From: Acidimicrobiales bacterium
GTDB lineage: Bacteria > Actinomycetota > Acidimicrobiia > Acidimicrobiales > Aldehydirespiratoraceae
Assembly (NCBI GenBank): GCA_965214945.1
Contig: OZ244029.1
Coordinates: forward strand, 872,533-936,532
Direction: 5' to 3'
DNA: 64,000 nucleotides
The first letter of the stretch is position 1; every line of letters begins with the position of its first letter. The notes below the pieces were generated by a model. It saw only the letters and a program-made list of their open reading frames with translations. It searched no databases and was not told where the DNA came from. Shown here piece after piece: positions 18,477-53,120 of the stretch. A program made the translations under genes and the position numbers.

Positions 18477-19526
18477 TTGATGGCTCCGACTGATCGACGC
18501 ATTATGCGTATTCCCATCCCCGTCCCCTTGATCAGGCAGATGGACGCTGTGATCCTGGGCGGTCTCGGCGGCTACACGACCCGTGCTGAGTTCATCGTCG
18601 ATGCCATCCAGGAGCGGATCCTCGAACTGTCGGTCGGGGTGGTTGAGGACGCTGGAGTTCCGCCGGACCCGCTTCTGGCGCCCGATACCACGACCCCGAA
18701 CATGACCGAGACAACCCTGCCTCCTCGGGCTACGCCCACACTTGCGGCGACCGTTCTCGAAGCGCCGTTGTCGGGTGCCACTGTGGATTGCGACTCGGAT
18801 CTGAGCCGCCCGGAGGGACGGCCCATCTTTGGGCTGCACAACCGCGACTACCCGTCGCTGTGGGCTCTCGCTGAACTTGCGAAGAGCACGGTGAACGGAG
18901 CCATCCCTGCCGAGACCTTCTACAACGAGACGCTCCGCAAGGCGTGGACCTTCGGAGAGGTGCTCCTCGCGGTTAAGAAGCACACAGGGATCAAGTGCAC
19001 CGTCTTGTTTCCCACGAATCCGGCTAAGCGAAAGGCTGCCGAGAACCGGTTTCGCTCCTCCGCCATCGGGACCCTTCGCACTGTTGGTGGCACCTGGACC
19101 ACTAGAGGACCGCTTTTTGAATGGCGGCTCGCCGGGCTGATCGAAGGCGACGAGTCTGGTCCGCTCATCGGCGTGACTCCTGGCGGGTGGAACATTCTCC
19201 AAGCGGTAAACGGGATCTCGGTCGAGGAACCCCACCCCGAGAACATGAGAGCCAAGTTCTTCGCTCACCTAGCCGAGTACGCCCCCGCTGATGAGCGGGG
19301 CTTCAGAGAGATCGTGGCTGCAATCGGACCAGATGGTGCCACCCGCCGAGATGTCCACGATCACTTAACGACGGCTTGGCCCGACTGGAACGGTAGCGAG
19401 GTTGCCACGAATTCCTCTGGCTATATCGCCCGAGCACGTGAATGGGGTCTCGTTAAACCGAAGCAGACCAAAAGCCATTACCACCTGACCGCACTCGGAC
19501 ACCAATACGCAAACGGAGGAAAGTGA
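18477..19526 (+). CDS. Ribbon-helix-helix (CopG/MetJ-like) DNA-binding protein with a large uncharacterised C-terminal region
   Basis: The N-terminus RIMRIPIPVPLIRQMDAVILGGLGGYTTRAEFIVDAIQERILEL fits the RHH pattern (beta strand, then two helices). The C-terminal end resembles a winged helix (SSGYIARAREWGLVKPKQTKSHYHLTALG). Its stop overlaps the next start (GTGATGA). Confidence 0.55.
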   Translation: MMAPTDRRIMRIPIPVPLIRQMDAVILGGLGGYTTRAEFIVDAIQERILELSVGVVEDAGVPPDPLLAPDTTTPNMTETTLPPRATPTLAATVLEAPLSGATVDCDSDLSRPEGRPIFGLHNRDYPSLWALAELAKSTVNGAIPAETFYNETLRKAWTFGEVLLAVKKHTGIKCTVLFPTNPAKRKAAENRFRSSAIGTLRTVGGTWTTRGPLFEWRLAGLIEGDESGPLIGVTPGGWNILQAVNGISVEEPHPENMRAKFFAHLAEYAPADERGFREIVAAIGPDGATRRDVHDHLTTAWPDWNGSEVATNSSGYIARAREWGLVKPKQTKSHYHLTALGHQYANGGK

Positions 19527-34685: not shown

Positions 34686-35894
34686 TTAAGGCAAGAGCGC
34701 AACAACGACCTGGTCGGCTACTTGGCGCGCCAGCAGGGGCGGTACTGCGTTCCCTAGCTGAGACTGGACCGACGCTCGCTTTCCTGCGAAGGCATAGCTG
34801 TCGGGGAAGGTGAACAGGCTCCGCAGTTCGGGTACCCGCAGTCGCCGGTTTTTCAGTGGAATGGCCCGACGTTGGGGCCCAGTTGGGCCTGGATGGTCGG
34901 TGAGGGTCTGTCGGGGTCGAGCTTCAGCAGGAACGACCAGTACCGTGACCGTCAATCGAAGATGGGTTCGGGATGGCCGCGTCTGGCGGTGAAGTGCAGG
35001 TAGTTGTCTCCGGGCGGGATCTGCGGGAGCAGATGACCCCACGATCCGCGTACGACTTCTTCTGGTTCGGGCTCGGTGACCAGGCCGTTGAGAACCTCGC
35101 CTGACGTGACATGCGGAACAACGCCTCGCGATCTGCTCCTACGTTCCCATTGGCCGAAGTGCGTCGGTGAGGGCAGCCTGGGAAGGCGTTCCCGTTTGCG
35201 GCTGCCGACAACGAAGAGGCGGCGCCGGGCTTGGGGCACGCCATAGTCGGCGGCGTTGAGCACCTTCCCGAGCTGCCCGCGCCTACCAGCGGCAGCGGTA
35301 GCCGGCGGCTTCGATCTCAGATAGCAGCCGGTTGAAGACCGGGCGGCTTGCGCCTTGTTGTCAAAGGTCAGCGCGTGGACGTTCTCAAAGATGAAGAGGC
35401 GGGGCCGGGCCTCTGACAGCACACGGGTGTAGGCCTGCAGCAGGCTCGCTGCCGGATCGATGCCGTCGCGCTTCCAGCCCAGCCAGAAGCCGGACTTGGA
35501 GAAGGCGACGCAGGGAGGGCCCGCCGATCAGCAGGTCGGGCTGTTCACGGCCTCTGAGGCCTGCGGCTCGCGGGATGTCCTTGGTCAACAGCCCCGAGGA
35601 CTGCCCGTTGGCCAGGGGGAACAGGTCACCGCGCACCACCTTGCGAAGCGAGGGAAAGTACGTAGGCGCGTTCTTCTCCATCGTGTCGGCAGCGGCGTCG
35701 TCCCACTCGATAGCAGCCAGCACCGCGAAGCCCGCGGCCTCCACCCCGAGATCAAGACCCCCGGCACCCGAGAACAACGAGATCGCAGAACCGGCGGACA
35801 CCCTGGCATTATTGCGGATCCGGCGGACACCCTCACATCTGCCCGCTCGCAGCCTCTTAGCGGCGCTCCCTTGTGTCGGAACTCTGGGTAGCAC
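34686..35894 (-). pseudogene. DNA (cytosine-5) methyltransferase pseudogene with three inactivating lesions
   Basis: Motifs FSGAGGLDLG (I), GGP then PCVAFS in a shifted frame (IV), FIFENV (VI), GVPQARRRLF (VIII), QLGNAVPP (X). Lesions: a frameshift inside the GGPPC motif near 35,510; a TGA in place of Trp in FD-W-RSRYW at 34952-34954; a 1-nt loss in HW-KNRRL near 34,855. Confidence 0.8.
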
Positions 35895-36073: not shown

Positions 36074-39000
36074 ATGTGTAGCGAATCGAAAGGTATGTGG
36101 GTCTTGGATTCGACCGGCCCGTGGCAACGCTACTTCCGCTGGAATGAGGCGATTGCTGACGTCGTCTTCAGCAGTGATCATGCTGGAAGTCCGGTCTATT
36201 TGGACCTCGAAGACCACATCATGAGCGAGGTCGCATCGAAAGCCGAACCGGGAGGCACGGGAGGTGCTAGCGGCCTAATCAAGGCGGTGAAGGACACGCT
36301 AGTTCTCGAACGTGGCCCTTCCCAGGTCTTCGCAGGGCACTTCAACCATCTGCGCGCATGGCGCAACGGCTCGAGGCTGAACCCGCCACCGGTCCTTGGC
36401 CTGCTGGGGATGCTGAGCCTGGTGGCAGAGGTGATGCACGAGGGCGAAGGCATGAAGGCGAACAACTTCTGGGGCCGGATGGCGCAGCTGCTAGATCTTG
36501 AACCGGGCGGTCTGAAGGCGTTTCAACAAGCCTTTTGGCACAAGGTCGACGGTCGCCCAGTGTCGGCACAGCTCTACGACTCCCTCAACGTCTGGTTGGA
36601 GATGCTCGAAGGCAATCGTGGGCTTCCGACAGCTATCGCCGCTGGACACCAGCATATCGGGTGGCCACTCTCTCAGGCCCTCGTTCGTGAGACGGATCGA
36701 GACCGATTTGGCGACCTGTTTGCACTCAACGCGTTGCCGCCAAGGAGTTCGCTACCGACATTCGAGATGGAGGGGCTGATCGAGGAGTGGATCTCGCACC
36801 GGCCATGTCCAGCGAGCAACTCCCTTGTACGTCTATGGAAGACAGGTTCGGAGGCACGAGCACGCATCACGGATGTGGCTGTGCTCACGCTCGGGTCGTG
36901 GGACGGCACTTCCGAGCGTATGTCCGAGCGGAGTAGCGCAAGTCGTCCTGTGGACGTTGTGCGTGCCACGGTTGTTCTGCGCACGTTTCCGTCTCGGAGC
37001 ATTCACGTCGGACTGGTTGTGCCCGGCCAATCTTCTGGTTCAGCGGATATTGTCGAGGTCGTTGACCGCGATGGTTCGGCTGTCAAGACGTTCGAGATGA
37101 CGGCCGCATCTTCCGCCTACCTGAGTCTGGCTGAGTCCGGATCCATCGATCCGGCCAGCTTCTTGGCTGGCGAAGTACTCCTGCGAAGGCGTGGGGATGA
37201 AGCTCTGCTGCGTCGCCGCGCTCGTAGGGTGATACCGATGCGGCACGATGACTTGCTGCAGGCATGGGTGGAGTGCGAGAGAGTTCAGCTTGCTGAGGAA
37301 TCTCTGGTTCTTGTCCGGTGCGAATTGGAACCGAAAGCCAAGAATGTGCTCAAGAAGATTGCGAGGCCTGGATTTAAGGTCGAAGGCGCGATGCTGGGGC
37401 TTCCTGAAGGCTGGATTGCAGTGTCCAGAGTTCAGGTCGTATCGTCGGTTCCGATCGAATTGCGTGAGAAAATTCGCGTGGAACTCAACGTTCTTCAGCC
37501 GCTTGCCACGTCACAGGCAGTGCTGGAGGGCGGTCTGCAGATTCCTGGAAACATTCAGAAGTGGTCCACTCTTCTTCCGCCGGAGTTCCGCGCTACTACT
37601 GATAGCGAACAGAGCCAGACGGCGTTGCTCACCTGTACCCGTGTGCTGACCTCGCTGCGTCCAGAGGATCGAAGGATCGTTGGTCAGGGGCAAGTGCTGG
37701 TTTGGGACTTGGCTCATGAGAGTCTCGGAGATGGCGACTACAAGCTCACTGTGCTTCAAGACGAAGAGCCAATCCGAATCGTGACTCTTCGCCTGCGTTC
37801 TGCCGATACTCCGGCTGTTCGTGGCGACGAGGCTGGGCTGCCGATTGTCCACGATCCAGAAGCCATCGGATTCGGGCTCGTTGCCTGCCCAAGTGACAAG
37901 CCGGGCGGTTTCCGCGGTGCACGCTCGACCCGTGCCCAAGTACCACACCAGCCTCTGCCAGCAGTCCCTGATTGGTACTCCGCACGTAGAGAACGGCCAG
38001 AGGCGCCCCAGAGTGCGGCTTGCGGCCAGTTTCGATTCCCCGCCGCCGATGACAGCTCCTGCATGGTAACCGGATATCACGTGATGAGCCTTGAGACTGC
38101 TCAAAAGGGGATGAAAAATGTCGAGGGTGTGTGCAAGGGCTGTGGTCTAGTGAAGCGCTACCCGGCTTGGCGAGGGAAGCCGAAGTCTGCCTGTCGGTCG
38201 TCGAGCAGGACGGCCTTGGCTCCCCGAATCGACGTAAAGGCCCTCGCCCCTGTTCGGGTAGCAGAAGGCATCGATTGGAGCGCAGCCTTCGACGTTGTCT
38301 GTCATGTCGGCTCAGGTCCAGCGTCTTCTCTCGCCCGCATCGCAGCTCAGCTAGAGGGCACCAGCTTATTCGGCAACATATTCGAACGACGGCTTGAAGC
38401 GCTCAGCCACATCGAGATCGAACGCACCAGCAGCCAGATGATTGCCAGTTGGGAAGTGGTAGAGCCTCTTATCCTCGGCCTCGGCGACGGATCTGCTGTT
38501 CTTGCTGGCTTCAGGAGCGCGAAGATGCTAGATGCCATCAGAGACTATGTAAAGGATTGCCAAGGCTTCCTTGAAATCGAGGAAGTTGATGCACCTCCGG
38601 TCGTGTACATCCGCAACCTGACCTCGGACCAACTCGGCAACCTGACCGCCGTCATGAGCGTTGTCGTCCAACGAGAGGCTCGGTATGTGCCACGGGCATC
38701 TGAGCAACTCTGCGCAGAACTACCGCCGTTGAGCCGAGCCCGCCGTGGACTGCCCACAACAACCACCACCAGGGCTCGGAGCTACGAGAGGTGGGATCCG
38801 GTTACTGCGCGCTTTGTACAAGTCGATAATGCGTCCTCTGCAGGGGCGTTTCGGCTCAGTGGCTTCACCCGCCAGTACATCTACAGGACTACCAATGACG
38901 TCGCCAAGATGCGAGCGGTTATCGGCGATGCCCGAATTGTGAAGTATCTCGCCGCCGCAGATGCTGGACTGGCAATCGTTGGCTACGACGTCGCGGCCAA

Positions 39001-39166
39001 GGTACTGTACGTACCCCTAGGCGCTGATCTGCCAGGCCTCTACGGACGCGCGGCAACCCTTTGTTCTGGAAGGCTGCCTCACGAGAATCGCAATGAACAG
39101 ATACTCGAGTATCGGAACATCCCCGCAGACGTAGCCGCACACCTCTCGCGCCTACTCATGAACTAA
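36074..39166 (+). CDS. Large uncharacterised protein, DruH-like by position and size (Druantia type III partner)
   Basis: A 1030-aa ORF with coding-like composition and no motif I recognise. It sits immediately upstream of the DruE-like gene (13-nt gap). The start is uncertain (ATG 36074 or ATG 36095). Confidence 0.45.
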
Positions 39167-39179
39167 GGATAGGACTCGT

Positions 39180-42100
39180 TTGACGATTACCACCCCGCAG
39201 AGCGTGTACGACGACATCAAGCAGGCGTACCTCCGTTATGTCGACACGACGTTCTGGCTCCGGTCATCCGCGCTCAGATCCGAACGAAGACGCCTACTCG
39301 AGGAGACTGATCTGCTCTTCACAGATGTACTGGTCGAGCCCGTTCTTCCCTACGACGCAACGGTTCCCCTTGATGAAGTCGTAGGCGACCTAGGCATTGA
39401 TCCACAGGTGGGCGAACTCGTCGGCCAGGCACTGTTCGGGGTGTTCACGAAGCCTGGCTGTCCCTACCTGCTGCGTTCACATCAAGCAGAGGCTCTTCGG
39501 CAGTCCCTCCAGTCTGGGGTTGCAGATGGCCGCAACGTCGTAGTGACCTCCGGCACAGGTTCCGGCAAGACAGAATCCTTTCTGCTTCCCGTGCTCACCA
39601 GGCTCGTAGACGAAGCCCTTGCATGGCTGCAGGATCCCCCTATCCATCCCTGGTGGGACCAGACCCGGGAGCCTTGGATTGGCTCTCGGCATGGCTCCTT
39701 CCGCCAGGCCGCAATCAGAGCTGTCGTTCTCTACCCGACCAATGCGCTAGTCGAGGATCAAGTGACTCGTTTGCGAAGAGCCATCAGGTCGATCAGAGGC
39801 TCTGGCGGTCCGCAGCTCTGGTTCGGACGCTACACGAGCGCAACACTCGGCTCGGGGAATCCTCCGGCAACGTCGCGAGATCGTAGAAAGGTGGAAGAAG
39901 CCGGCCGTGAGCTTCGCGCAATGACGAGCGAGTACGACGTCCTCATCAACGTAGATGGGATCGATCTCGCGGAGTTTCCTGATCCGCGCCAAGGCGAGAT
40001 GCTGACCAGATGGGACATGGTTACAAGCCCGCCAGACGTGCTTGTAACGAACTACTCGATGCTCAACGCTATGCTCATGCGCGATATCGAGGAACCGATG
40101 TTCGAGGCCACCCGACAGTGGCTTCGTAGCGATGAGGGCAACGTGTTCTCCCTGGTTGTCGACGAACTCCATCTCTACCGCGGGACGCAGGGGTCAGAAG
40201 TCGCGATGATCGTCCGCAACCTTCTGAGCCGTCTCGGACTTAACCCAGAATCGCCACAGCTGCGGTGTCTGGCGACCTCGGCGTCATTAACCGACAACCC
40301 GAGCAGCCTTGACTACCTTGAGCAGTTCTTTGGTGTTCCACGCTCTTCATTCTTCGTCACGGCAGGATCTCCCCGTTCTGTTGACACTGATCTGCCGATC
40401 AGTGGGTCTGACTTGCTCCACACATGGCAGAGCACTCCCGCAGCTGACCGAGGCATCGCAGTAGTCGAGCAGTTCTCGCTTCCTGAAGCTGTTGCATCGG
40501 CTTGCCAAGATCACGAAGGGCATGTGCGCGCTACACGCCTTGATGAACTCGCTGTGAAGCTGTTTGGCAACAATTCAGACCCATGTGCGTTTCAAGTCGC
40601 CCTTGAAGCACTGGGAGGCCTGAAGGCGGGAGCAGACTCAATACCACTTCGGGCACACATGTTCGCCCGTACTATGCGCGGGCTCTGGGCTTGCTCCAAT
40701 CCTTCATGCGACCAGGTGAGCCGCCAAGAAGATCTGGGTATCGGACGCATATTCGGTATCGCCACATCGACCTGCGGATGTGGCGGCCGAGTCCTCGAGC
40801 TCCTCTATTGTTTCGAGTGCGGCGACGTCAGCCTCGGCGGATACGTGGCCACGGAAGAGGAAGGCGTCACATTCCTCACCTCGACACCCGCCGACGTGCT
40901 CGCGGGCAAGGCCGCCCCCGTTTTCAAGCGATTGCACAATGCCTACCGGTGGTACCGTCCAGGCCCCGAACGCAGCTGGCGGACGTGGGGTCCGACGACC
41001 CCGTGTGGCAAGAAGATCAAGATCGGCTTCGCAGCCACCGACTACGACCCACTGCTAGGCGCTCTGATCACGCCACCGGAGGGATCCGGCACTGGAATGC
41101 TCCTCGCGGGCATTCCAGCAGACGAGAACCTGCGGACGCCATCCCTGCCAGTGCACTGTCCACGCTGCGATCAACGAACCGGAGTCCTTGATGGTCACAC
41201 CTACTTCGTAGGCGAGGTTCGCAGCCCAATTCGTGCACACATGTCCGGTATCGACCAGGCAACTCAGCTGCTGATGACTCAGCTTCACCGGTCTATGGGA
41301 GACACGGTCGAGGAATCCCGCACGATCGTCTTCACGGACAGCCGTGAAGGTGCAGCACGCACCGCCAGCGGCACCGAACTCAACCAATTCCGTGATCTCG
41401 TCCGGCAGCTCACCCGGCGAGTTCTCCAGCAACAGGAAGACCACATCGACATCATGCGGCGCGGTTCTGCAGATATCGACGCTCTAGAGCCAGAAGAGCG
41501 AGTGCTCTACGATCAGATCGCTGCAGGAGATGCGGCACTTGCCCAAGCCTTTCTCCGTGACCATCTCGGCGCAGCAACACCTGTAGATATTGAGCGCATC
41601 GCTGCGTTCGAGGCCCAACATAGCGGATCCAAGCAATTCGTATCATGGGGTTCTATCATACATCGCCTGAGCAAAGAATTGCTCCAACTTGGCCTGAACC
41701 CTGCAGGCCCTGACGCTTCCCTCCGAACATTTGACAACGCTGATGACGTCCCTTGGTATCGTGCCTGGGAGCCACCCAAACCCGGTCTTTGGCATCAGGT
41801 CGAGTTCGACCTCGCTCAGCAGGCCCAGCAACGGCAGAAGGAACGCCTCACGATCAGAGTCGCTGAGGGTGCCTTCGATCGCGCAGGACGAGACCTGGAG
41901 TCGATCGGCCTCGGGATCGTTGAGCCCAGCATCGCCAATCCTTTATCTTGGCCACTCGGCAACGACGAAGCACAAGAAGTCGTCAGGTCCGTAACCCGAA
42001 TCCTGGGCACCATGGGCCGATACGACGGCAGCTACTACCGGCATCCCAGCGACAACCCTCCAAAGAATGTCAAGGACTATCTCGTTGCGGTATCAGCCGG

Positions 42101-44546
42101 GCGATGTGACGAAGAAGCACTGATAAAGCATGTGTCGACTCTCTTCTTAGGCAGTATCGCGCCAGACTGGATTCTTGCAACAAACCCAGTTCGATCTACC
42201 CTGCGGGTCATCAGTCCCACCTCTTCATCCCGCTGGGTCTGCTCAAACTGCGCACGTGTGCATCTTCATCCGTCTGCCGACGTGTGCTCTGGTACCGGCT
42301 GCAACGCGCGTGGACTCATCGAACAAGAAATAACACCCGACAACTTCGAGGACTACTACTCATGGCTTGCCCAGTTGCCCCCGCGTCGACTTCGCGTTCG
42401 CGAATTGACAGGACAAACGAAGCCTCTCGACCTTCAACGCCAACGCCAACGCATCTTCAAGGGAGCGGTTCTTCCGCCACCGAGAGAAGAAGCCACGTGT
42501 GACGGCATCGACGTGCTCAGTGTGACGACAACGATGGAGGTCGGCGTGGACATCGGCTCGCTTCGATCCGTCATGATGGCCAACGTCCCGCCCCAGCGTT
42601 TCAACTACCAGCAGCGCGTTGGACGCGCTGGCCGCATGGGTCAAGCCTTCTCGTACGCACTCACCCTTGTACGCGATCGCACACACGACGACTACTACTA
42701 CAAGCACACCCACAAGATAACCGGGGATGCGCCACCCCAGCCCTTTCTCGACACGAGGCGAGACCGAATTCTCAAGCGAGTAGCCAGCGCCGAGCTGCTT
42801 CGGCGAGCCTTTTTGTCTCTGCCCAATCCGCCCAAGCGGACTGCGGACTCGATCCACGGTGTTTTTGGACGAACGGATGAATGGGAGGGCCTACATCGGA
42901 GCGGAGTCCGCTCCTTCCTCGAACAGGCTCCCGACGTTGACGAGGTCGTAGGGCGCCTTAGTGCCTTCACGGGTATGCCCCACGACACACTTGGCGATAT
43001 CGTTCTCTGGCAGCGCAGCAACCTGGTGCTCAAAATCGACGAGGCGGTGCAAAGCCCCTACTACCGACAGCCAGAACTCTCCGAACTGCTAGCGAATGCA
43101 GGTCTACTGCCCATGTTTGGGTTTCCAACCCGGGTCCGCAACCTCTACGGGAGGTGGATCAAGTTGCGCGAAGATCTTGACGCTTACACAGTGAGCACCC
43201 GTCCGCTCGACCAAGCCATAGCGCACTTCTCGCCAGGCTCTGAGGTCACACACGAGGGGTCTATCTACACGTGTGTTGGATTCGCCGCATATGACATCAA
43301 GGCGGGCCGGCCCTTCCCAGTAGATCCACTGAGTGAGAGAATCGAGTTCAGCCGATGTGTTGGGTGTGATCGCACGGAAGTGTCCGGGAACGATATATTG
43401 CACGCCTGCCCTGCCTGTGACAGCGAACTTGAGATCGTTCCGTTGCACCAGCCTCTGGGCTTCAGGACCTCTTACTCGCCTAGGAACTATGATGACATCG
43501 TTGAGGGTGTGGGGTCCATTGGATTTCCTCAACTCGCCATGCGTCCAGGCACGGGTGACTCGGAGACGGTTGGCGCAATGGTTGTCGAAAGATGGGAAGA
43601 GCCGGTCTCGGTGGTGCGCATCAACGACAATGAGGGAAGACTTTTTTCGCTCCTCCGCGAACGCGACGGCACCGTTGTTTGCGATGACGACTCGCTTTAT
43701 AGGAAGCAGAAGAGTTTCGAATCCGCTGGTTCGACTAGACTCGAATCAGCGGCGATAGGAGAGATTAGGCCGACCGATGTCGTGACACTCTCCCTTGAGC
43801 AGGTCGCGTTGCACGGAGGTGTCATACCCACGGCCGGCTATCTGGCGCCCGCCGGAATGAGTGCGATGTGGTCATTCGCAGAGCTCATGCGGCGAGGGTG
43901 TCAGGTCGCGCTTGACCTCCAACCGGATGAGATTCAGGTCGGCCTGCAGCCGATCCGAATTGGGGACTTTGAGACTCGCCTGATCTTTCTCGCGGATCGC
44001 CTTGAGAACGGCGCTGGCTACGCGCCGGAACTCGGCCAGAGCAAGCACCTCAAGCAGGTGTTGGATGGCATTCTCGGAGAGCTAGCTGACGAGTATGAGG
44101 GACCCGGTCATGCCGACGACTGTGGCCAATCATGCCCCGACTGCCTCCGCAGCTGGGACAACCGTCGATTGCACGGTTTGCTCGATTGGCGTCTGGCGCT
44201 GGACGTGGCAACCCTCGCCACTGGCTTGTCGCTTCGTACCGACCGGTGGCTGAGCCGCGCTGAGGGGCTTGCCGATCAGTTCGTCCGCGCGTACCACCAG
44301 GCCTTGCCATGCCGGATCGCTTTGGCTGGCGATTTGTTCGCTATCATCCGGCAAGACAACAAGGCTGCAGCGATCCTCGGCCATCCGCTATGGATGCAAG
44401 ATGAGAGATATCTCAACACCCAGCAATCCGAGGCTTACAACATCGTTCGATCAGACCTCGGTGTTCGGAATGCGTCCCTCACTGACCTCTGGGTGCTTGA
44501 CCGCATTCCGGCGAGGATCTTCAGAGTTCTCCGTGAAGCCGACTGA
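39180..44546 (+). CDS. druE: Giant DExH helicase fused to a DUF1998 domain, DruE-like (Druantia)
   Basis: [20 protein letters not shown] (I), [12 protein letters not shown] (Ia), [16 protein letters not shown] (II), [37 protein letters not shown] (V-VI). Several Cys4 clusters. C-terminal DUF1998-type [26 protein letters not shown] start with AGGA upstream. 1788 aa. Confidence 0.7.
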
Positions 44547-44557
44547 CTTCCCAATAG

Positions 44558-44662
44558 GATGACGTTCTCGACGACATGGAACGACTTGCCTGGCACACCG
44601 AGGCAGACGTGGATCTTGAACTCGGTATGCCTCTTCAACCCAAGGGGATTGATCCCCGGTAA
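44558..44662 (+). pseudogene. 34-codon scar of a paralogue of the gene at 50329-51306
   Basis: Translation DDVLDDMERLAWHTEADVDLELGMPLQPKGIDPR-stop, against DPDVLDDIERLARYDEADVDLVLGMPLQPKGIDPRY inside the 50329-51306 product. It begins 12 nt after the druE stop, preceded by an in-frame TAG. Confidence 0.75.
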
Positions 44663-44718
44663 TGGTGCTCACAGGCAGAGTCAACAGGCTCGACCGAGAA
44701 AAGGAGCACTGTCGTATC

Positions 44719-45333
44719 TTGTCCGCCTTTGAGCCGGTTCTCTTGGAGCAGTATCGACCGCAAGGCCGGCTTCGCCTTGGTAGCTTGCTGCTCGTCGGTG
44801 TTATCGCTCTGGCGCTGTTGTTCGCAGGATGTTCAAGTGACTCTGATGATTCCGACGACGCAGACACCGAGTCAGACAGCAGCACTGAACAGGACTCCGG
44901 CTCAGGTGCCGCATTCGATGCTGATCGCGAAGCGGCAATCGCGGTGTTGGTCGAGTTGTACACCGCGACGGCCGACGAGCCGTACCAATTCTTCAGCCCC
45001 GTCGAGGCTCGCTGCATCGCCGAGGGGGTCGTCTCCGAACTCGACCTCTCTGAGCTGCCCACTGACCTCACAGACCTGGCGACCGCCGACCCCACCAGTC
45101 AACCTGACATCGACTTCTTCGCCCTCCAACGCAGTTGCATCAACGGCCCTGCCCGCCTCGAGCAGCTTCTCGCGCCGGGCATCGGTGCCGAGGCAGCAGC
45201 CTGCGTGGCAGAGCAGGTCAGCGCCGAGTCGGCTTACGCCTACGCAGTCGGGCCGTTCCTGGAAGATGCAGATATCCCGCCTGAGGACCAAGCCGCCGTC
45301 GTAGGCCACATTGAGGCCTGTCAGACCGGCTGA
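44719..45333 (+). CDS. Acidic secreted lipoprotein, unknown function
   Basis: Signal peptide with lipobox (RLRLGSLLLVGVIALALLFAGCSS), then a D/S-rich linker. Start uncertain: TTG 44719 follows AAGGAG (44701-44706); the ORF track opens at 44662. Confidence 0.5.
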   Translation: MSAFEPVLLEQYRPQGRLRLGSLLLVGVIALALLFAGCSSDSDDSDDADTESDSSTEQDSGSGAAFDADREAAIAVLVELYTATADEPYQFFSPVEARCIAEGVVSELDLSELPTDLTDLATADPTSQPDIDFFALQRSCINGPARLEQLLAPGIGAEAAACVAEQVSAESAYAYAVGPFLEDADIPPEDQAAVVGHIEACQTG

Positions 45334-45618
45334 ACGGCAACCGAGATCCGTTGCCAACCCAGAGCACCAAATCGGATGAGGCCTGAGGCGTCATGACCAC
45401 GGATCCCGCGGCCGTGCCGCCCATCAAATTACGCAGAGGGTTACGGCTACGTCGACCAGCCCAATAGGGTTAGCCGTCCTCCTGGCCTGAGTCTGAGGCG
45501 GGTACTGATGATGTGAACCTATAGCGGAGCGGGCCAGGCACACATACCCACATCAATCCCGGGTGTCACAGCTCAGCGGTACGGTCGCACTCATCTATTC
45601 AATGTGAGAGGGATACCT

Positions 45619-47040
45619 ATGGTTAAACATGATCTTTCGCTCAGCCAGCTGCCAAATGGAGGCACTGCTCAAGCGATTCCTCTTCCCGGGAGCGAGTTGT
45701 GGTCTACGGTGGGGGACATGGCTGCTGCTACGCGTCCACGCACCAATGCCAGAATGAACATGCTCTTGGCGCGAGACGCCCCCGCACACGACTGGTACCG
45801 GTTCGTGTTGTCGTTCCCTCCTCACCTTGTGCGTGATTACGCTCAGCGATTCGGTCTCACCACCAAGAGTCGCCTTCTTGACCCGTTCGCCGGAACGGGT
45901 ACAACCCTCGTCGAAGCGAAGAAGCTTGGCTTGCCCAGTTATGGTCTTGAAGCGGTGCCTGTGTCCAGGCTCGCGGCTTCCACAAAGGTCAATTGGAGTC
46001 CTGATCCTGACAAGTTTATCAAGCATGCTGATCTTGTGGCCGAGAAGACCCTCACGATGTTGGCTGTGGACGGCATCTCTGATGAGCCGGCATCATCTGA
46101 CCCGCGAGGAGTGAGGCTACTGACGCTTCCTTCCGCCAGCGCGAAGTTGCTGCTCAAGAACTCCATCAGCCCGCTGCCGCTTCACAAGGTGCTTGTCTTG
46201 CGTGACACCATCGACAGTGAACACAAAGCGGCCTTTGCTGACCACGAACGGCTCGCATTGGCTCGCATCTTGCCTGTAGAGGTTGGCAATTTGCGGTTCG
46301 GGCCGGAGGTGGGTCTCGGAAGTGTCAAGCAAGATGCGCCGGTGGTGTCCGCGTGGCTCAACCGCGTCCGTGCAATGTGTTCTGATCTCCATCAGCTCCG
46401 GCCTCAGGCCGCAACCCCGGCGGCAGCCCTCGACGGAGACGCTCGAGCCGTTGATGAGCACCTGACACCGCGCAGTGTTGATGCAGTCATCACATCCCCG
46501 CCATACCCGAACGAGAAGGACTACTCGCGCACCGTGCGCCTCGAATCGGTCATTCTGGGTTATCTCAGCAGCCGAGCGGACTTGCAAGCGATGAAGAAGC
46601 GACTCGTTAGGTCCAATTCTCGGGGCGTCTACCGCGACGACGGCGACGACTCCTGGGTTCGAGACAACAGCGAAGTCAACCGTGTCGCTGCAGCGATAGA
46701 GGCCCGCCGCATTGAACTCGGTAAGGACTCCGGATTTGAGCGCATGTACCATCGGGTTACCAAGCTGTACTTCGGCGGGATGGCACGTCATCTGACTTCC
46801 TTGAGCCATGTCCTCACACCGGGAGCACGGCTGGCGTATGTTGTCGGAGACCAGGCCTCTTACCTGAGAGTCATGATTCGCACCGGTAAAATGCTGGCTG
46901 AGATAGCGGAGCGCGCCGGATACGAAGTTGAGTCAATCGACCTGTTTCGCACCCGCCATGCAACTGCCACACGAGAGCAACTCCGTGAGGAAGTACTCGT
47001 TCTGCGCTGGCCAGGTAGCGGGCGGGACGGCCAACCATAA
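45619..47040 (+). CDS. DNA methyltransferase (amino-MTase; SPPY motif suggests N4-cytosine or N6-adenine)
   Basis: AdoMet motif LDPFAGTGTTLVEAKKLG (aa about 90) precedes the catalytic AVITSPPYPNEKDY (aa about 295), i.e. motif I, then a variable region, then motif IV. ATG 45619 is preceded by GAGAGGG. Confidence 0.75.
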   Translation: MVKHDLSLSQLPNGGTAQAIPLPGSELWSTVGDMAAATRPRTNARMNMLLARDAPAHDWYRFVLSFPPHLVRDYAQRFGLTTKSRLLDPFAGTGTTLVEAKKLGLPSYGLEAVPVSRLAASTKVNWSPDPDKFIKHADLVAEKTLTMLAVDGISDEPASSDPRGVRLLTLPSASAKLLLKNSISPLPLHKVLVLRDTIDSEHKAAFADHERLALARILPVEVGNLRFGPEVGLGSVKQDAPVVSAWLNRVRAMCSDLHQLRPQAATPAAALDGDARAVDEHLTPRSVDAVITSPPYPNEKDYSRTVRLESVILGYLSSRADLQAMKKRLVRSNSRGVYRDDGDDSWVRDNSEVNRVAAAIEARRIELGKDSGFERMYHRVTKLYFGGMARHLTSLSHVLTPGARLAYVVGDQASYLRVMIRTGKMLAEIAERAGYEVESIDLFRTRHATATREQLREEVLVLRWPGSGRDGQP

Positions 47041-47079
47041 TGCAGTCACAATCTCGAACATCCAGAGGACTGACCTGAC

Positions 47080-47910
47080 ATGCCAACGACGAGCCTGGCA
47101 CAACAGATCATCGAGAGAATCTTCAGCAAAAAGCACGCTGAGGGCATTGAAAAGGTCACATTCACCAGGGAGGACTTGGGTCGTGCCGCTGAAGCGTTGG
47201 GGGCATCTCAACCCAAGAACCTTGGCGACATCGTGTACTCGCTGCGCTATCGACAGCCACTACCTGACTCCATCAGACAAACCGCACCTCCAGGACGTGA
47301 ATGGGTTATCTTCCCCGGCGGCAATGCCGTGTACACACTGCGGACCGTGCCATTTAGCTCTATTGAACCAAGACAAGGCCTTGCCACAATTCGCCTACCC
47401 GACGCCACACCCGGCGTCATCTCAAAGTACTCTCTCACAGATGAACAGGCCCTCCTGGCCGAGGTACGGTACAACAGACTGCTGGATGTGTTCACAGGCC
47501 TTACTTGTTACCCTCTTCAAAGCCACTTGCGCACAAGTATCACCATCACCAGTGATATCGACGGGACACCAAGCAGCTCACAGGTTGAAACGGACGACCT
47601 ATATGTTGGTCTGGACGAACACGGAGCACATTATGTGCTGCCGGTCCAGGCCAAACGTGGCTCTGATTTCTTGAGCGTCATCCAGATTTGGCAGGATTTC
47701 CGGGTCGCCAACCAGAAGTTCCCTCGCTTGATTGCCAGGCCGATTGCAGCACAATTCATGGGCCACGGTGCGATAGCACTCTTCGAATTTCGGGAATTCA
47801 ATGATCAGATCACCATTGCTAAAGAGCACCATTACAGCCTGGTTCTGCCTGAAGAACTTACGCGTGAGGAAATCGCAGAGTATTCAACCGCTGCCCAGCG
47901 ATCTCGCTGA
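47080..47910 (+). CDS. Putative type II restriction endonuclease (PD-(D/E)xK-like)
   Basis: Sits 39 nt downstream of the methyltransferase. Candidate catalytic block ETDDLYVGLDEHGAHYVLPVQAKRG (D...QxK). No other recognisable domain. Confidence 0.5.
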   Translation: MPTTSLAQQIIERIFSKKHAEGIEKVTFTREDLGRAAEALGASQPKNLGDIVYSLRYRQPLPDSIRQTAPPGREWVIFPGGNAVYTLRTVPFSSIEPRQGLATIRLPDATPGVISKYSLTDEQALLAEVRYNRLLDVFTGLTCYPLQSHLRTSITITSDIDGTPSSSQVETDDLYVGLDEHGAHYVLPVQAKRGSDFLSVIQIWQDFRVANQKFPRLIARPIAAQFMGHGAIALFEFREFNDQITIAKEHHYSLVLPEELTREEIAEYSTAAQRSR

Positions 47911-48108: not shown

Positions 48109-48732
48109 CTACAGACCGAACGACGGGTAGTGGGTGGTGACCATGCTGACGTAGACCCCGACGCGGTACAAGTAGTTGGCGAAGGCCACCAGGAAGTTGC
48201 GCATGCCCTTGGGCCAGCGTCCCGTGAACAGCACCGCGAACCAGGCGAGGATCACGACCACAAGGGCGCCGATGCCGATCACCACGATCACGATGTAGTG
48301 TGGTATCGCCAGCAGGAAGTTGAACAGCGCCCTTCTCGGAGTGCGCTCCGGCACGTCCGGGAGGTTGAAGCGCAGAGGCGAGTAGGCGCCGTTGTCGTCG
48401 ACGGAGAAGTTGAAGTCGAAGGGCGCGTACTTCTCGCTGTAGCCGAAGAGAAAGGCATCTGCTCGGGCCTCGTAGCGCAAGCAGCCGGCCTGGGCTGCCC
48501 AGAGCCCAGAGTTGAGACGGCCGGTGAACAACAGGTGAAACCAATTGAGGAGCAGCACGACCTGGCTTAGCACATTCAGCGTGTAGCCCACAAGGCCGTG
48601 CGGAATGTACATCAGCCAATGCACGAGCGGCCGCCAGTTGGCAACCTCATAGGGGCTGTCGAGCACGTAGATGTCGCCATCGGCGGCCACCGGCGAGGAC
48701 TGGATTGAGGTGTTGTTGTCCATGGCCGCCAA
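48109..48732 (-). CDS. DUF4389-like membrane protein
   Basis: Two hydrophobic hairpins with the repeated signature WFHLLFTGR / WFAVLFTGRWP, as I recall for DUF4389. TTG at 48732 or ATG at 48723 as start. Confidence 0.5.
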   Translation of the reverse strand: MAAMDNNTSIQSSPVAADGDIYVLDSPYEVANWRPLVHWLMYIPHGLVGYTLNVLSQVVLLLNWFHLLFTGRLNSGLWAAQAGCLRYEARADAFLFGYSEKYAPFDFNFSVDDNGAYSPLRFNLPDVPERTPRRALFNFLLAIPHYIVIVVIGIGALVVVILAWFAVLFTGRWPKGMRNFLVAFANYLYRVGVYVSMVTTHYPSFGL

Positions 48733-48887: not shown

Positions 48888-49367
48888 ATGGCTATGGTCG
48901 ACTTCTCCGGCGACCTGCATCCTCCCACCCGGCTCGCCGCTGCGGTGTGGGCGAGCGTTCCGGTGAGTGGCGACGAAGACGCTCCGAAGGTTTGGGGCGA
49001 AGAGGAGGACGATGTGGGTGCGGATGCCCCAAGACCTGGAGACTGGTTTGTCGTTCCGAATGCCGTCACCGGGCTGCGTGCACCCGAACAGGGTGGCGTT
49101 CACCCTCTGATAGTCGCGTCAGCGTGGCCTGGCCCCCCGGTCATGCTTTTCCCGAGGTCGGCCAGTCGGGGTAGCTGGCACAAGGCCCATCAAGGCTCCT
49201 GCGGATTTGCATCCTGTCGCATTGACAAGGACGGCGAGATCGGCTTAGATCCCTGCATCGTCGACCCCTGTGATCTGACCGATTATTCCTGCAAGGAACC
49301 GGACGAGGAGATCATCGAATGGGTGATGGGTGGTGCTCACGCGAGTCGGAAACGAGGTCGGCGGTGA
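48888..49367 (+). CDS. Hypothetical protein, first gene of a four-gene coupled operon; possible MazF/PemK-like barrel (weak)
   Basis: RPGDWFVVPNAVTG...HPLIVASAWPGPPVMLFPRSAS resembles the GD-x-hydrophobic / RP-x-hydrophobic-V pattern of PemK-fold proteins. Start uncertain (48786, 48876 or 48888). Stop overlaps the next start (GTGA). Confidence 0.35.
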   Translation: MAMVDFSGDLHPPTRLAAAVWASVPVSGDEDAPKVWGEEEDDVGADAPRPGDWFVVPNAVTGLRAPEQGGVHPLIVASAWPGPPVMLFPRSASRGSWHKAHQGSCGFASCRIDKDGEIGLDPCIVDPCDLTDYSCKEPDEEIIEWVMGGAHASRKRGRR

Positions 49368-50332
49368 GCGACGCTCGACTCAAGCGTCTACGCCATGAAG
49401 CGGCCACGGCGCGGCTCGGCAGAGAATGGCTGAGAGAGATTCGAGCCGCGTGTGCAGAGGTCAGCAGGCGTTTCGACCCGACAATATATGGAGTTTCCGA
49501 ACCATCTTGGACCGGAGCAGAGATCGACAACCTCGTCCGGGACGTCACAACCGAACGTCTCTTGGGGCAAGGCCAGCTTGCTTACATTCTCGACGTCGCC
49601 GAGACGATCGGTGGCGTGCATCGCCTGCTTTGCCACCAGGTCCGTCGGGCGCTCGTTGCACGACACCACTGCACAGTCATCGATCGGCTCTTGACCCGGA
49701 TCACTACGCTCCTTGACGGCATCGAAGCCTACGAACGTGTCCCTGCCACCTCTCCGGTGCGCTACCGTCCCGTGGGCTCCGACTGGGGTGTTGTGGGGCC
49801 GTCGGCTGAAGATCTTCGTCGCGCTAGTGCCCGTGTCCGGTTGCTGCCGATATCAGCGGCGAGCAGGGATCGTGCTCCAGCCATTTTCCGCAGTGAAGTC
49901 CTCGACAGAGTGGTGGCGGATTGCTTCGACGCGTGCGAGACTAGTCTGTCGATCGACGACTTTGGCCGGATTCTTCGTGAGGCATTGACATCTTGGTTTC
50001 CCGTCGTCCTTGAACTGGAGGAGGAGATCGACGTGGAGTCTCCGGATACCGTCGACCTCCTCAGCGAACTGGAGCAGACCGTGACCCTGATCATCGATGA
50101 CCTCAAAGAGACACACAGGTCGGTCTTGGTGACCAAGCTGCGAGGAGCGCCAGATTCGGCACTGGCCGAGCAGCTGTCAGTCAGTCGCCCGACCGCCGTG
50201 AGCGCTAAGCTTGACGCGTTCGCTGAACTCCAGAGTGCTTGGCAGCGGTGCGCTTCCGATCTTGCGCCAGCTCACCACGCTACGCTTGCCCAAGTCCTCT
50301 ACTTGCGCCTCAAAGAGCAGGTTGGCCAATGA
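49364..50332 (+). CDS. Hypothetical protein with a C-terminal sigma-70 region-4-like HTH
   Basis: The C-terminus LKETHRSVLVTKLRGAPDSALAEQLSVSRPTAVSAKLDAFAELQ matches the region-4/LuxR-type HTH pattern. GTG 49364 overlaps the upstream stop; the ORF track opens at 49319. Confidence 0.45.
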   Translation: MSDARLKRLRHEAATARLGREWLREIRAACAEVSRRFDPTIYGVSEPSWTGAEIDNLVRDVTTERLLGQGQLAYILDVAETIGGVHRLLCHQVRRALVARHHCTVIDRLLTRITTLLDGIEAYERVPATSPVRYRPVGSDWGVVGPSAEDLRRASARVRLLPISAASRDRAPAIFRSEVLDRVVADCFDACETSLSIDDFGRILREALTSWFPVVLELEEEIDVESPDTVDLLSELEQTVTLIIDDLKETHRSVLVTKLRGAPDSALAEQLSVSRPTAVSAKLDAFAELQSAWQRCASDLAPAHHATLAQVLYLRLKEQVGQ

Positions 50333-51306
50333 AAGATCAACAAATGCCCGACTGGCTTACGGAAACGCTGTCGATGACTGAGCCGTACACACGGACGGCG
50401 GAAACTCAAGCACCAGCCGAGATCCGGCCTGGCGATGTGTGCGTCGTATACTCCTCCACGAGATCGGATGCTGTCGTTAGGCTGCTCCTCGCGCGACACG
50501 CCGAAGATGGTTGGTGCGACGGAATGCTCATCAGCGCAGAGACAGAGTTGGCAACGGAGGTCGACGCCATTCTTCCCGGAGAGCAAACCAGGCTTGGTTA
50601 TCGAGTTGCCGTCCACTCTCGTTTCCATGGTCCGATCTGGATCACCCAGATTGCCCGACGTGTGGGGGCAGTCGATCCAGATGTTCTCGACGATATAGAG
50701 CGACTCGCAAGGTATGACGAGGCAGACGTGGACCTCGTGCTCGGCATGCCACTTCAGCCCAAGGGGATCGATCCTCGGTATCCGGCTCTCGAAGCGCTCT
50801 TCGCCGAACTCAAGGTGCTTACCAACCATTGTCGCCGCCTACGCTACGATCTGAGTCCACCGGTCCTTGATCCTTACCTCGCAGAGATCCATGTTTTCCG
50901 CCAACTGCTCACCGAACCCGGATGGGAAATAAAGCTGGCAAACGCAGTAAGCACGCCCGACTTCCAAGATCGGCTGCTGGCGTCGCTGCGAGAACTCTCC
51001 AAAACCGAACGCCGAGGAGCGATGCTCTTCATTGAACGTGCCCTTCATTGTGAACCTACCGCAGTGTCTATATCGGTATCGAAGCAAGCGACAGCCCCTG
51101 GCGAAGTCATGGCAGACCATCGAGACCAGCACGCTCTGGCCGGTGCCATAGCTAGTCGTTCGGATCCGTCGGTCACGCTTTTTTCGCATTCGAGTTGTTG
51201 GGAGCGATCGCCCAGCTTTGCCTTCCGCGCGTACCTCGGAAGCATCGAGGAGAAACACATCAAGATTGACTCGATCGGTGAGCTCCTCATGAAGGATGCT
51301 GCATGA
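50329..51306 (+). CDS. Hypothetical protein; N-terminal MazF/PemK-like pattern (weak) with an unknown C-terminal extension
   Basis: IRPGDVCVVYSS...VVRLLLARH...GMLISAETELATEVDAIL...RRVGAVDPDVLDDI. ATGA overlaps at both ends. A paralogous scar lies at 44558-44662. Confidence 0.4.
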   Translation: MKDQQMPDWLTETLSMTEPYTRTAETQAPAEIRPGDVCVVYSSTRSDAVVRLLLARHAEDGWCDGMLISAETELATEVDAILPGEQTRLGYRVAVHSRFHGPIWITQIARRVGAVDPDVLDDIERLARYDEADVDLVLGMPLQPKGIDPRYPALEALFAELKVLTNHCRRLRYDLSPPVLDPYLAEIHVFRQLLTEPGWEIKLANAVSTPDFQDRLLASLRELSKTERRGAMLFIERALHCEPTAVSISVSKQATAPGEVMADHRDQHALAGAIASRSDPSVTLFSHSSCWERSPSFAFRAYLGSIEEKHIKIDSIGELLMKDAA

Positions 51307-53120
51307 TGTCGTCACGCTTTGGCTTCCGGGCACCACGTCGAACGCGATTGAGCGGAATTGAACTCCGTAACTTCAAGTCTGTTGCTTCGACCGATGTTCC
51401 CCTCACTCCACTGACAGTCGTCGCAGGATCCAATTCTTCTGGGAAGAGTTCACTCCTTCAAGCAGTCCTTGCCCTGACGCAGGTAGCCCGGCGCCGCATT
51501 GACGGACGACGGTTTCCGCTCAACGCCGAACTCACACGTCTTGGCACATTCACATCACTGCGTCATCAGGACGCTGATCCTAATGCGCCTGTCGTGATCG
51601 GAACGCAATTCAACGTTGACCCATGGGACCTGGGAATCCCGTGGCAGCGCCGTCGAGCCTTCAGTGTTGGCCAGACGTCTCATATGGAGCGATTCAAGAA
51701 GTACCCGGTGTCTGTTCGTTGGTCGATTGAGATGGACTTACCCGTCGAGGATCAGATCGGATCTGCCCAGATCTTAGCTGTTGATGTATCTGTCAGCAGT
51801 GACTCTCTAGACTATTCGTGCCGAATTAGGCGGACGTCTGAGCTGTCGAAGGTCCGCGGTCCGCGGATCGATATTGACGATGCTCGGACCTTCAAGGGCT
51901 CTATCAAATCGGGCGATACCGATACAGAAGTACTAGATGCGCGGCTCTTCAGCGGGCAGGTGGCTTCTTTCTTCGGCCAGCTGCCTGAGCCAGCGATCCG
52001 TGTCCGTGAGTGGCTTCAGGCGCTGCTGGAGAGCCACGAAGTTGACGACGGGAAGGAAGTGGCCTCATCGATCGATCGAGAGCGGGCCATCCAGCGTGCA
52101 GTGTGGGCAATCGACAGGGGCCGCGAAGAGGCCTCGGAGTTTGCGGCGTTGTATCTCGCTCAAGACGAAGCCGGTCGTAAGACGTTGGAGGAAGATTTAA
52201 TCAGGGCCTTGAAGGAAGATTTGTCCAGGGCGTCGAAGCGAAACTTCAGGAGGAGGGTACGTGCTGGTGGCGATGGCTCGATCGAGCTACTGACAGGGCA
52301 CACGCCCGCTGCGCTTGTCGGAGCGCAGCGGGCGTGTGCTCAGTATTTGTCGTCGCAGGTCAGATACGTCGGCCCTCTCCGTCACCCGCCTGATCAGCCC
52401 TTCAGCACAGCTCCAGATCCAGATGCTGGAGATGTCGGCGTGGCTGGGCAGCACGTGGCTGCCGTTCTACAGGCCAAAGGAAACGTCAAGAGCAGTTATC
52501 CGTTGCCTCCCGACGTGTCGGCAATGACAGCTTCTGACGACACGACTCTCGAGCATGCCGTCAATCTATGGCTCACGTACTTGGATCTTGCCGAGACACT
52601 GAGTGTGCGAGAGGACACGCCTCTTGTGCTAGGAATCGACTTAGTACCTCCGGGCCTCGCAAGGCCAGTCGGGCTCGGTGCTGTTGGTGTTGGCGTGAGT
52701 CAGGTACTTCCAGTGTTGGTGCAGTGTCTGGTCGCAGGTCCGGGAGCCCTTGTGGTGCTGGAGCAGCCAGAACTCCATCTGCATCCGGGGGCTCAGCAAC
52801 TCCTTGCTGACTTTCTGCTTGCGTGCGTGGACTGGGGCCAGAATTTCCTCATCGAATCGCACAGTGAATATCTGGTTCTCAGGCTTCGTCGTAGGATTGC
52901 TGAGGACGACTCCGGTTCCCGGCTAGAGCAGATCTCGATCTTGTTCGCTGAGCGCAACGGTGGTGCGACTACATACCGCCCGGTCGAGATGACCCCGACC
53001 GGAGGCGTTGTCGATTGGCCTGATGGGTTCTTCGATCAGGGCCCTGACGAGGCATACAAGCTCCTGGTCGCTGCTGCTGACCGCCAGCGTCGAGCACAGG
53101 CAGACAGCGATTCTGGCTAA
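51303..53120 (+). CDS. AAA/ABC-type ATPase with a DUF3696-like C-terminus
   Basis: N-terminus LSGIELRNFKSVASTDVPLTPLTVVAGSNSSGKSSLLQAVLAL (Walker A). LVVLEQPELHLHPGAQQLLADFL (Walker B). ESHSEYLVLRLRR. C-terminal DWPDGFFDQ, which I recall as the DUF3696 signature. Confidence 0.65.
   Translation: MMSSRFGFRAPRRTRLSGIELRNFKSVASTDVPLTPLTVVAGSNSSGKSSLLQAVLALTQVARRRIDGRRFPLNAELTRLGTFTSLRHQDADPNAPVVIGTQFNVDPWDLGIPWQRRRAFSVGQTSHMERFKKYPVSVRWSIEMDLPVEDQIGSAQILAVDVSVSSDSLDYSCRIRRTSELSKVRGPRIDIDDARTFKGSIKSGDTDTEVLDARLFSGQVASFFGQLPEPAIRVREWLQALLESHEVDDGKEVASSIDRERAIQRAVWAIDRGREEASEFAALYLAQDEAGRKTLEEDLIRALKEDLSRASKRNFRRRVRAGGDGSIELLTGHTPAALVGAQRACAQYLSSQVRYVGPLRHPPDQPFSTAPDPDAGDVGVAGQHVAAVLQAKGNVKSSYPLPPDVSAMTASDDTTLEHAVNLWLTYLDLAETLSVREDTPLVLGIDLVPPGLARPVGLGAVGVGVSQVLPVLVQCLVAGPGALVVLEQPELHLHPGAQQLLADFLLACVDWGQNFLIESHSEYLVLRLRRRIAEDDSGSRLEQISILFAERNGGATTYRPVEMTPTGGVVDWPDGFFDQGPDEAYKLLVAAADRQRRAQADSDSG

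Follow-up and report, generated by a model that had tools for sequence, protein, structure and literature searches.

Probable Druantia locus of the type II/IV lineage in an Acidimicrobiales bacterium, with a decayed druM and a retained druF-druE pair

Type II Druantia consists of DruM, DruF, DruG and DruE (Doron et al. 2018, as in PADLOC-DB), and complete systems of this type were reported only in Proteobacteria by the PADLOC paper (PMC8565338). Type IV comprises DruF, DruL and DruE and by definition lacks DruM (Payne et al. 2021, PMC8565338), while type III, with the variants III-A and III-B and examples in E. coli and M. smegmatis (PMC13316683), combines a sensor of about 1000 aa, DruH, with DruE and has no methylase in the system. 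Recent mechanistic work on Druantia has all been done on type III, including the studies of its DruE (10.64898/2026.05.13.724758; PMC13192584; 10.64898/2026.05.12.722862). Here, we analyze a 64,000-nt stretch of an Acidimicrobiales genome (contig OZ244029.1, positions 872,533 to 936,532; hereafter the window), in which a preliminary description had recognized a pair of large genes and assigned it to type III as druH-druE. The helicase of this pair is indeed predicted to be a DruE, but its partner shows no detectable sequence relationship to DruH. The locus is instead very likely a Druantia system of the type II/IV lineage, in which a divergent druM pseudogene lies next to a druF-druE operon, and the pair would now work, or at least be tolerated, without DruM. 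Its three genes are:

34686..35809, minus strand: druM pseudogene, encoding a putative C5 cytosine DNA methyltransferase, divergent to the pair and inactivated
36074..39166, plus strand: druF, long form (predicted DruF+DruL fusion), 1030 aa, ATG start
39180..44546, plus strand: druE, 1788 aa, TTG start; predicted superfamily 2 (SF2) helicase of the YprA family with zinc modules and a C-terminal MZB/DUF1998 domain

Both large open reading frames (ORFs) lie exactly where the preliminary description had placed them, as does the 13-nt spacer between druF and druE, and together the two genes occupy 8.46 kb. They are not chance ORFs, because both have a coding-type GC content by codon position (0.66/0.47/0.63-0.64) and numerous homologues. 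For the 1030-aa protein, a homologue search returned 107 sequences, although none identical to it is on record. Searching 1.84 billion cluster representatives with a profile of its family gave 4628 matches at E<=1e-3, of which 1205 remain at E<=1e-30, and the 150 best-scoring ones are almost all about 1000-1060 aa long. The C-terminal part of DruE, used as a query, gave 441 matches.

The 1788-aa protein matches the PADLOC profile DruE2 (PDLC00015) over its full length with 1531.5 bits (aa 4-1786 against positions 3-1882 of 1887), followed by a second DruE2 profile (PDLC00014, 1423 bits), by DruE4 (1292 bits, likewise full length) and by DruE1 (539 bits); the DruE3 profiles reach 220-356 bits, the best one being split into six separate stretches. 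As stated in the preliminary description, a helicase core, cysteine clusters and a DUF1998-type region are combined in one polypeptide of 1788 aa, which is borne out by Pfam matches (DEAD, Helicase_C, MZB) and by motifs that can be read in the translation:

39477..39788, plus strand: start of RecA1 with the Walker A motif GTGSGKT (aa 125-131); Pfam DEAD at aa 100-203
40161..40172, plus strand: DELH box (aa 328-331), read in the translation; D328, E329, L330 and H331 are conserved
42504..42641, plus strand: RecA2/Helicase_C with motif VI; Pfam Helicase_C at aa 1109-1154
43878..44147, plus strand: MZB/DUF1998 zinc-binding domain (aa 1567-1656); Pfam MZB, 21.3 bits

At least 19 of 20 homologues share the Walker A residues G125-T131, motif VI reads QQRVGRAGR in the translation (with Q1144-R1152 conserved), and the MZB score is slightly below the cut-off of 24.2 bits. 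Each of five cysteine sets is retained in at least 19 of the 20 homologues as well: C505/C510/C532/C534/C544/C547, C660/C663, C1021/C1024/C1036/C1041, C1393/C1396/C1410/C1413, and H1644/C1648/C1652/C1655. By profile and motif content, the protein is thus predicted to be a full-length DruE with all ATPase/helicase motifs. It is neither a fused DrmA-DrmB nor a repair helicase of the MrfA/YprA type: the DrmA profiles cover no more than about 70 residues (38-39 bits), and the repair helicase MrfA of the MrfA/YprA type (PDB 6znp) matches by sequence in the RecA2 part only (E=1.7e-9). Among PDB sequences, the closest solved relative is 9wae_A (E=2.9e-146), a chain of 1970 aa that is deposited simply as “Helicase” (7 entries) and is not linked to a paper, followed by the type III-A DruE 9tu7_Y (E=2.4e-43). 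An AlphaFold2 (AF2) model of aa 1180-1788, with a mean predicted local distance difference test (pLDDT) of 89.1, resembles MrfA (6znp, E=3.6e-7) and DrmB in the DrmAB complex (7s9v_B, E=5.8e-4) according to Foldseek. The same Foldseek search of this C-terminal model yields no nuclease fold, and Pfam finds no phospholipase D (PLD) domain in DruE; the former fits the published view that DruE of types I and II is without an active nuclease.

For the 1030-aa partner, the preliminary description had reported a protein without recognizable motifs, which holds for the general libraries, since neither Pfam nor NCBIfam gives a match, but not for PADLOC. There, the protein is matched almost end to end by the long DruF2 profile PDLC00023 (E=1.9e-223, aa 14-1029 against positions 3-1010 of 1011) and over its full length by a second long DruF2 profile, PDLC00016 (E=4.4e-217). 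The short DruF2 and DruF4 profiles (about 690 positions) reach only aa 17-494, with E=3.9e-38 for DruF4 on the N-terminal part, and the DruL4 profiles fall on aa 772-1027 (PDLC00057, E=1e-24; PDLC00056, E=1.1e-11). The 1030-aa protein is therefore predicted to be a fusion of DruF and DruL: its C-terminus matches DruL4, and both parts occur as separate genes in an Anaerolineae metagenome-assembled genome (MAG; locus L024). There, overlapping genes at L024:9986-12942 encode a DruF4 of 690 aa and a DruL4 of 295 aa (1e-34), with no methylase within 10 kb, a layout which matches that of PADLOC type IV. By this comparison, the protein in the window would be the fused form of the L024 DruF-DruL pair.

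The AF2 model of DruF (pLDDT 91.4; predicted template modeling score 0.92) can be divided as follows:

36116..36898, plus strand: N-terminal all-helical domain (about aa 15-275), from DSSP on the AF2 model
36956..37873, plus strand: central beta-sandwich region, immunoglobulin (Ig)-like (about aa 295-600), all-beta in the AF2 model
38060..38143, plus strand: Cys-His-Cys-Cys motif (C663, H669, C687, C690), a probable zinc knuckle
38390..39154, plus strand: DruL-like alpha/beta C-terminal domain (aa 773-1027), from PADLOC DruL4

In the helical domain, P105, P106, W174, Q201, R205, D208 and W239 are invariant, and Foldseek finds no match for this domain in PDB or BFVD. The four residues of the Cys-His-Cys-Cys set are invariant in 90 family members and probably bind zinc. 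In the model, the alpha/beta region that corresponds to the DruL part spans aa 735-1030. For the whole of DruF, Foldseek against PDB and BFVD returns nothing below E=1e-3 and no enzyme-like match; the weak matches are exclusively Ig-like or fibronectin-like (3n6y, E=7.6e-3; IL-17 receptor chains). A comparison of the DruF profile with PDB sequences produced one chance match only.

The third gene requires a comparison with related loci, which were collected by scanning one genome per species with a 10-sequence DruF alignment. This gave 22 loci, and with the addition of two alphaproteobacterial plasmids a total of 24 was examined. In all loci that hold both genes (21 of 21 in genomes, 2 of 2 on plasmids), DruF or DruF and DruL are directly followed by DruE. 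The closest relatives are MAGs of Acidimicrobiales, Microthrixaceae and Aldehydirespiratoraceae, with identities of 47-68% for DruF and 65-79% for DruE, and in the seven closest loci, all from Acidimicrobiia MAGs, DruM occupies the same divergent position, the intact methylase of these relatives being 363-396 aa long. More broadly, a C5 methylase is found within 10 kb in 18 of 22 clustered sequences, the window included, while several relatives, among them L017, L023 and L024, have no methylase within reach.

In the window, the minus strand just upstream of druF carries two overlapping ORFs in different frames, both of which match the Pfam family DNA_methylase (C-5). Their best PADLOC profile is DruM2 (PDLC00026), with 93.6 and 66.7 bits as compared to at most 57.7 bits for the generic MTase_II profiles; the intact methylase of L002 behaves in the same way (338 bits for DruM2, 278 for the best generic MTase_II). 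When this 363-aa orthologue is used in tblastn, its residues 2-359 are covered in two frames of the window. The preliminary description had called the neighboring methylase decayed, and the C5 methylase is in fact spread over at least two minus-strand frames and interrupted by five lesions, as seen when its DNA is aligned with intact orthologues from four loci (L002, L004, L005, L006): an extra nucleotide directly before the catalytic GPPC motif (+1 nt), a further insertion of 2 nt, a 19-nt insertion carrying TAG, a nonsense substitution (TGG>TGA), and a deletion of 1 nt. The possibility that the frameshifts are long-read or homopolymer sequencing errors was considered and rejected on account of the 19-nt insertion with its stop codon and the TGG>TGA substitution. 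Because DruM2 is the best model for the fragments, and because a methylase is found at the equivalent divergent site in the closest relatives, the decayed gene is predicted to be the system's own druM and not an unrelated neighbor.

What makes this loss informative is the state of the two genes beside it. Whereas druM has accumulated five disabling lesions within about 1.1 kb, the 8.46 kb of druF and druE are free of them. At the per-base rate of druM, some 38 lesions would be expected in the pair, and the probability of finding none is about 5e-17, if equal neutral rates are assumed for all three genes. Moreover, in a leave-one-out comparison DruE of the window agrees with its 19 homologues at all 261 columns in which these do not vary, and DruF agrees with 17 homologues at all 48 such columns. 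The lack of lesions together with the retention of every invariant residue implies that the pair has been maintained without its methylase. A second case is provided by L005, in which a single Trp-to-stop change interrupts druM while druF and druE are intact. Judged from these sequences, druF-druE appears to have been retained under selection without the methylase at least twice independently, which fits the existence of the methylase-free type IV systems.

These observations raise the question of whether the locus should simply be regarded as PADLOC type IV (DruF, DruL and DruE), with the nearby methylase as an unrelated orphan or the remnant of a restriction-modification (R-M) system. The DruL4 match at the C-terminus of the 1030-aa protein, the DruF4 match at its N-terminus, the full-length DruE4 match, the lack of a working methylase and of DruG, and relatives without a methylase within reach such as L017, L023 and L024, the last with split F and L genes, are all in line with this alternative. 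Even so, we consider it unlikely: the DruE2 and the long DruF2 profiles outscore their type IV counterparts, DruM2, and no generic methylase, is the best-scoring model for the methylase fragments as well as for their intact orthologues, and each of the seven closest loci has a methylase in this divergent position. In addition, the small sample at hand suggests that DruE and DruF of the window would fall inside a clade in which every member carries DruM. In profiles and descent, the locus belongs to type II (DruM2, DruF2, DruE2); the genes that it is predicted to have at present (DruF, DruL and DruE, with no working methylase and no DruG) are those of a type IV-like system. Being type IV-like in content and type II-like in descent, it turns the choice between these two labels largely into a question of naming.

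It is less likely still that the locus is a dying remnant, i.e., a system that ceased to function upon the loss of druM and in which druF and druE are merely not yet visibly broken. Decay is certainly common among the relatives: insertion sequences (IS) interrupt druE in L001/L003 (IS481) as well as druM and druF in L007 (IS21 and IS4/5, respectively), and L020 is broken in multiple places, which suggests that this Druantia lineage is frequently lost in Acidimicrobiia MAGs. A remnant of this kind is, however, difficult to reconcile with the distribution of the lesions, all five of which lie in druM, and with the complete set of invariant positions (261 in DruE, 48 in DruF) kept by the pair.

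Type III, which is suggested by the similar layout of a 1030-aa unannotated protein closely followed by a large DruE-like helicase, by the existence of actinobacterial examples (DruH of 1132 aa and DruE of 1667 aa in M. smegmatis; PMC13316683) and by the partial match of the DruE3 profiles (356 bits), is nevertheless the least probable reading, as DruF2 covers the partner over its full length (E=1e-223), DruE2 covers the helicase in one piece with 1531 bits where DruE3 needs six stretches, DruE has no PLD domains, a cognate DruM2-type methylase lies in the orthologous position, and DruH was found by none of the searches. As reference for these searches, DruH of E. coli was taken from a chromosomal Zorya-Druantia-ARMADA island (L029:2309-5668). 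The DruH profiles in PADLOC do not match the 1030-aa protein at E<=0.01, and neither does the NCBIfam YjiT/STY4851 family (YjiT_fam), on which E. coli DruH scores 979 bits; alignment of a 90-sequence profile of the 1030-aa family with E. coli DruH by hhalign gives a probability of 0.1% (E=0.54), and BLASTP between the two proteins gives E>1. Matches to DruE on E. coli plasmids, which were followed in search of DruH, proved to be ARMADA type II.

Several points weigh against an assignment to the type II/IV lineage and against what may be derived from it. The locus lacks DruG, a gene required by PADLOC for type II: no match was obtained in ten ORFs flanking the pair (35.0-36.1 and 44.7-53.1 kb) or in eight further ORFs at 0.1-21.9 kb, the ORFs at 22-34 kb being outside the PADLOC scan and matching transport and sugar-metabolism families in Pfam, and none was seen in the neighbors of the related loci that were scanned. 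Taken strictly, the locus therefore does not qualify as a complete system of type II, and not as type IV either. Druantia types I and II were described in a Koonin-lab preprint as encoding an inactivated McrB-like homologue of CnuB with a coiled coil (PMC12458937), and no such CnuB-like inactivated McrB-type GTPase, as in the “Type IV CoCoNuT” reading, is seen at the locus. A scan for promoters and terminators at 34.3-45.7 kb performed no better than on shuffled sequence. DruM could be replaced by another C5 methylase with its specificity, encoded beyond the visible 64 kb. Finally, any mechanism has to be borrowed from type III, although DruH and DruF share no sequence relationship, and the searchable literature yields no experiment on Druantia of type II or IV.

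With the type II/IV assignment retained, a mechanism can be outlined by analogy to type III. DruE would load on exposed phage DNA that is single-stranded, 3'-tailed or forked, and unwind it in the 3'-to-5' direction with ATP. DruF might serve as a non-enzymatic partner which senses infection or gates DruE, as DruH does in type III, and its Ig-like repeats are candidate recognition surfaces. Such a role as sensor or regulator is the most economical one, because DruF has a DruH-like size, Ig-like modules and no enzyme motifs. The locus seems to encode no active nuclease, so that clearance would depend on unwinding itself or on host nucleases; some relatives add DruK (see below). Ancestrally, DruM probably marked host DNA with 5-methylcytosine (5mC). 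The pair may now work, or be tolerated and selected, without a 5mC mark, as in the DruM-free PADLOC type IV, DruM being either dispensable or replaced. The locus thus presents itself as a putative natural methylase knockout in type II/IV Druantia, and bears on whether Druantia II acts in an R-M-like manner. A more general proposal, which we offer tentatively and would put at somewhat less than even chances, is that self-tolerance of DruF-DruE is independent of the system's own cytosine methylation, that DruM is an accessory that can be lost, and that type II-like loci become type IV-like in this way, with purifying selection continuing to act on the helicase pair. If true, the core of type II/IV Druantia would not be R-M-like, phage DNA would be told apart by its structure or by a protein trigger, as in type III, and the fused DruF-DruL would act as a sensor whose fold has no counterpart in PDB.

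The related loci differ in the genes that accompany the core. DruK, a PD-(D/E)xK/Cas4-like protein (Pfam PDDEXK_1) of 370-440 aa, is encoded directly after druE in L004, L006, L007, L019 and L020 and as a fragment in L023; it is absent from the window, L002 and L005. The relatives from Actinomycetes have a different DruM2 subfamily (PDLC00034, 448 bits), usually with an adjacent Vsr gene. Remnants of DruK and Vsr were sought in the window and none was found. A GmrSD_N protein of 630-680 aa, NsnA-like according to PADLOC, is encoded on the opposite strand directly upstream of druF in five loci (L009, L011, L013, L014, L018), which suggests a linkage with a type IV restriction component in Actinomycetes. 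On the two plasmids, DruE is followed by a nucleoside triphosphatase-like protein of 655-733 aa. In two metagenome contigs, a UvrD-type helicase is fused to the N-terminus of DruF, giving a protein of 1776 aa (L030:6034-11364, L031:9001-14331), which is followed by DruE and a C5 methylase and adjoined by an integrase fragment and a TrwC relaxase. The locus and its relatives provide a compact three-gene version of the system (DruM, fused DruF-DruL, DruE) and a set for comparison, with intact trios, DruK and Vsr versions, split and fused DruF/DruL and UvrD fusions, as material for cloning and phage challenge.

Within the window, the stretch from 36 to 53 kb has a lower overall GC content than its surroundings, and third-position GC is 0.58-0.71 in its genes as compared to 0.77-0.88 in the flanking host genes, as expected for an acquired island of horizontal origin. 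No tRNA that might mark an integration site is present in the 64-kb window. In agreement with the preliminary description, no PLD gene lies downstream of druE, where the ORFs encode a lipoprotein-like protein, a type II methyltransferase and a restriction enzyme. The first of these (44662-45333, plus strand; 223 aa) starts 115 nt past druE, has coding-type GC, a lipoprotein-like signal (LFAGC) and a strongly acidic Ser/Asp-rich region, but neither a family match nor a counterpart in the related loci. The other two form a type II R-M pair directly 3' of Druantia (45604-47910, plus strand), consisting of an N6/N4-type methyltransferase of 478 aa and a restriction enzyme of 276 aa (PADLOC REase_II, PDLC03404, E=1.4e-96). 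A host-like DUF4389 gene (48109-48732) with a third-position GC of 0.88 separates this block from three co-directional genes at 49319-53120 (plus strand), which are probably a further defense module: two of their products (337 and 355 aa) have no family match, and the third is a 605-aa AAA_15/AAA_21/DUF3696 ATPase whose best PADLOC match is NsnB (E=3.9e-58).

About 20 kb upstream of Druantia, the window also contains a complete operon of class 1 DISARM (3276-17122, plus strand), so that two different YprA-family helicase defense systems are found some 20 kb apart:

3276-6563, plus strand: DrmD, 1267 bits
6551-10636, plus strand: DrmMI, 1612 bits
10633-14367 and 14318-16429, plus strand: DrmA and DrmB, respectively, of the class 1 DISARM operon
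16748-17122, plus strand: DrmC ORF, matched by only the C-terminal half of the profile

The DrmC ORF may be truncated or may start further upstream. Between DISARM and the sugar-transport genes, two ORFs that overlap (18477-21850, plus strand; 349 and 775 aa) match neither Pfam nor PADLOC, and a 402-aa ORF at the start of the window (82-1290, plus strand) is matched by only the C-terminal half of the PbeC/DndD profiles. A role of the putative Druantia in defense is consistent with its surroundings, since the window also holds DISARM, an R-M pair of type II and an AAA ATPase system.

MrfA/YprA and DrmA-DrmB of DISARM have the SF2 core and a C-terminal module of oligonucleotide/oligosaccharide-binding (OB) fold and MZB (DUF1998) in common with DruE, as indicated by the Foldseek matches to 6znp and 7s9v_B. 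However, MrfA/YprA is a helicase of about 750 aa that occurs alone or with the exonuclease MrfB and not in a defense operon, whereas DruE with its 1788 aa is more than twice as long, has extra zinc modules, lacks an MrfB partner and has DruF as a neighbor wherever both genes are present. Class 2 DISARM is made up of a fused DrmA-DrmB, DrmMII and DrmC; the Druantia locus has no DrmC/PLD gene and reaches the DrmA profiles with 38-39 bits only.

Type III-A and III-B Druantia (PMC13316683) resemble the locus in their two-gene core, in which a large non-enzymatic partner precedes a DruE of the YprA family, in the homologous helicase core of DruE (PDB 9tu7_Y), and in the Ig-like domains that have been described for DruH (PMC13192584) and are predicted for DruF from the model and the weak Foldseek matches. 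They differ in that DruH and DruF have no detectable sequence relationship, in that DruE of type III-A carries C-terminal PLD domains, which are missing from DruE of the window, and in that type III has no methylase. Type IV has the same protein content, with DruE4 matching at 1292 bits and neither a working methylase nor DruG, but lacks DruM by definition, while the lineage of the window possesses a druM that is dead in the window and intact in relatives; moreover, F and L form one polypeptide in the window. Type II provides the best profile for all three genes. From it, the locus differs by the absence of DruG, by the DruL-like domain fused to DruF, by a druM that is divergent and a pseudogene, and by its host, which belongs to the Acidimicrobiia and not to the Proteobacteria (PMC8565338). 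The literature examined contains no description of a system that combines DruM, a DruF-DruL fusion and DruE and lacks DruG; the three protein families involved are all already represented in PADLOC.

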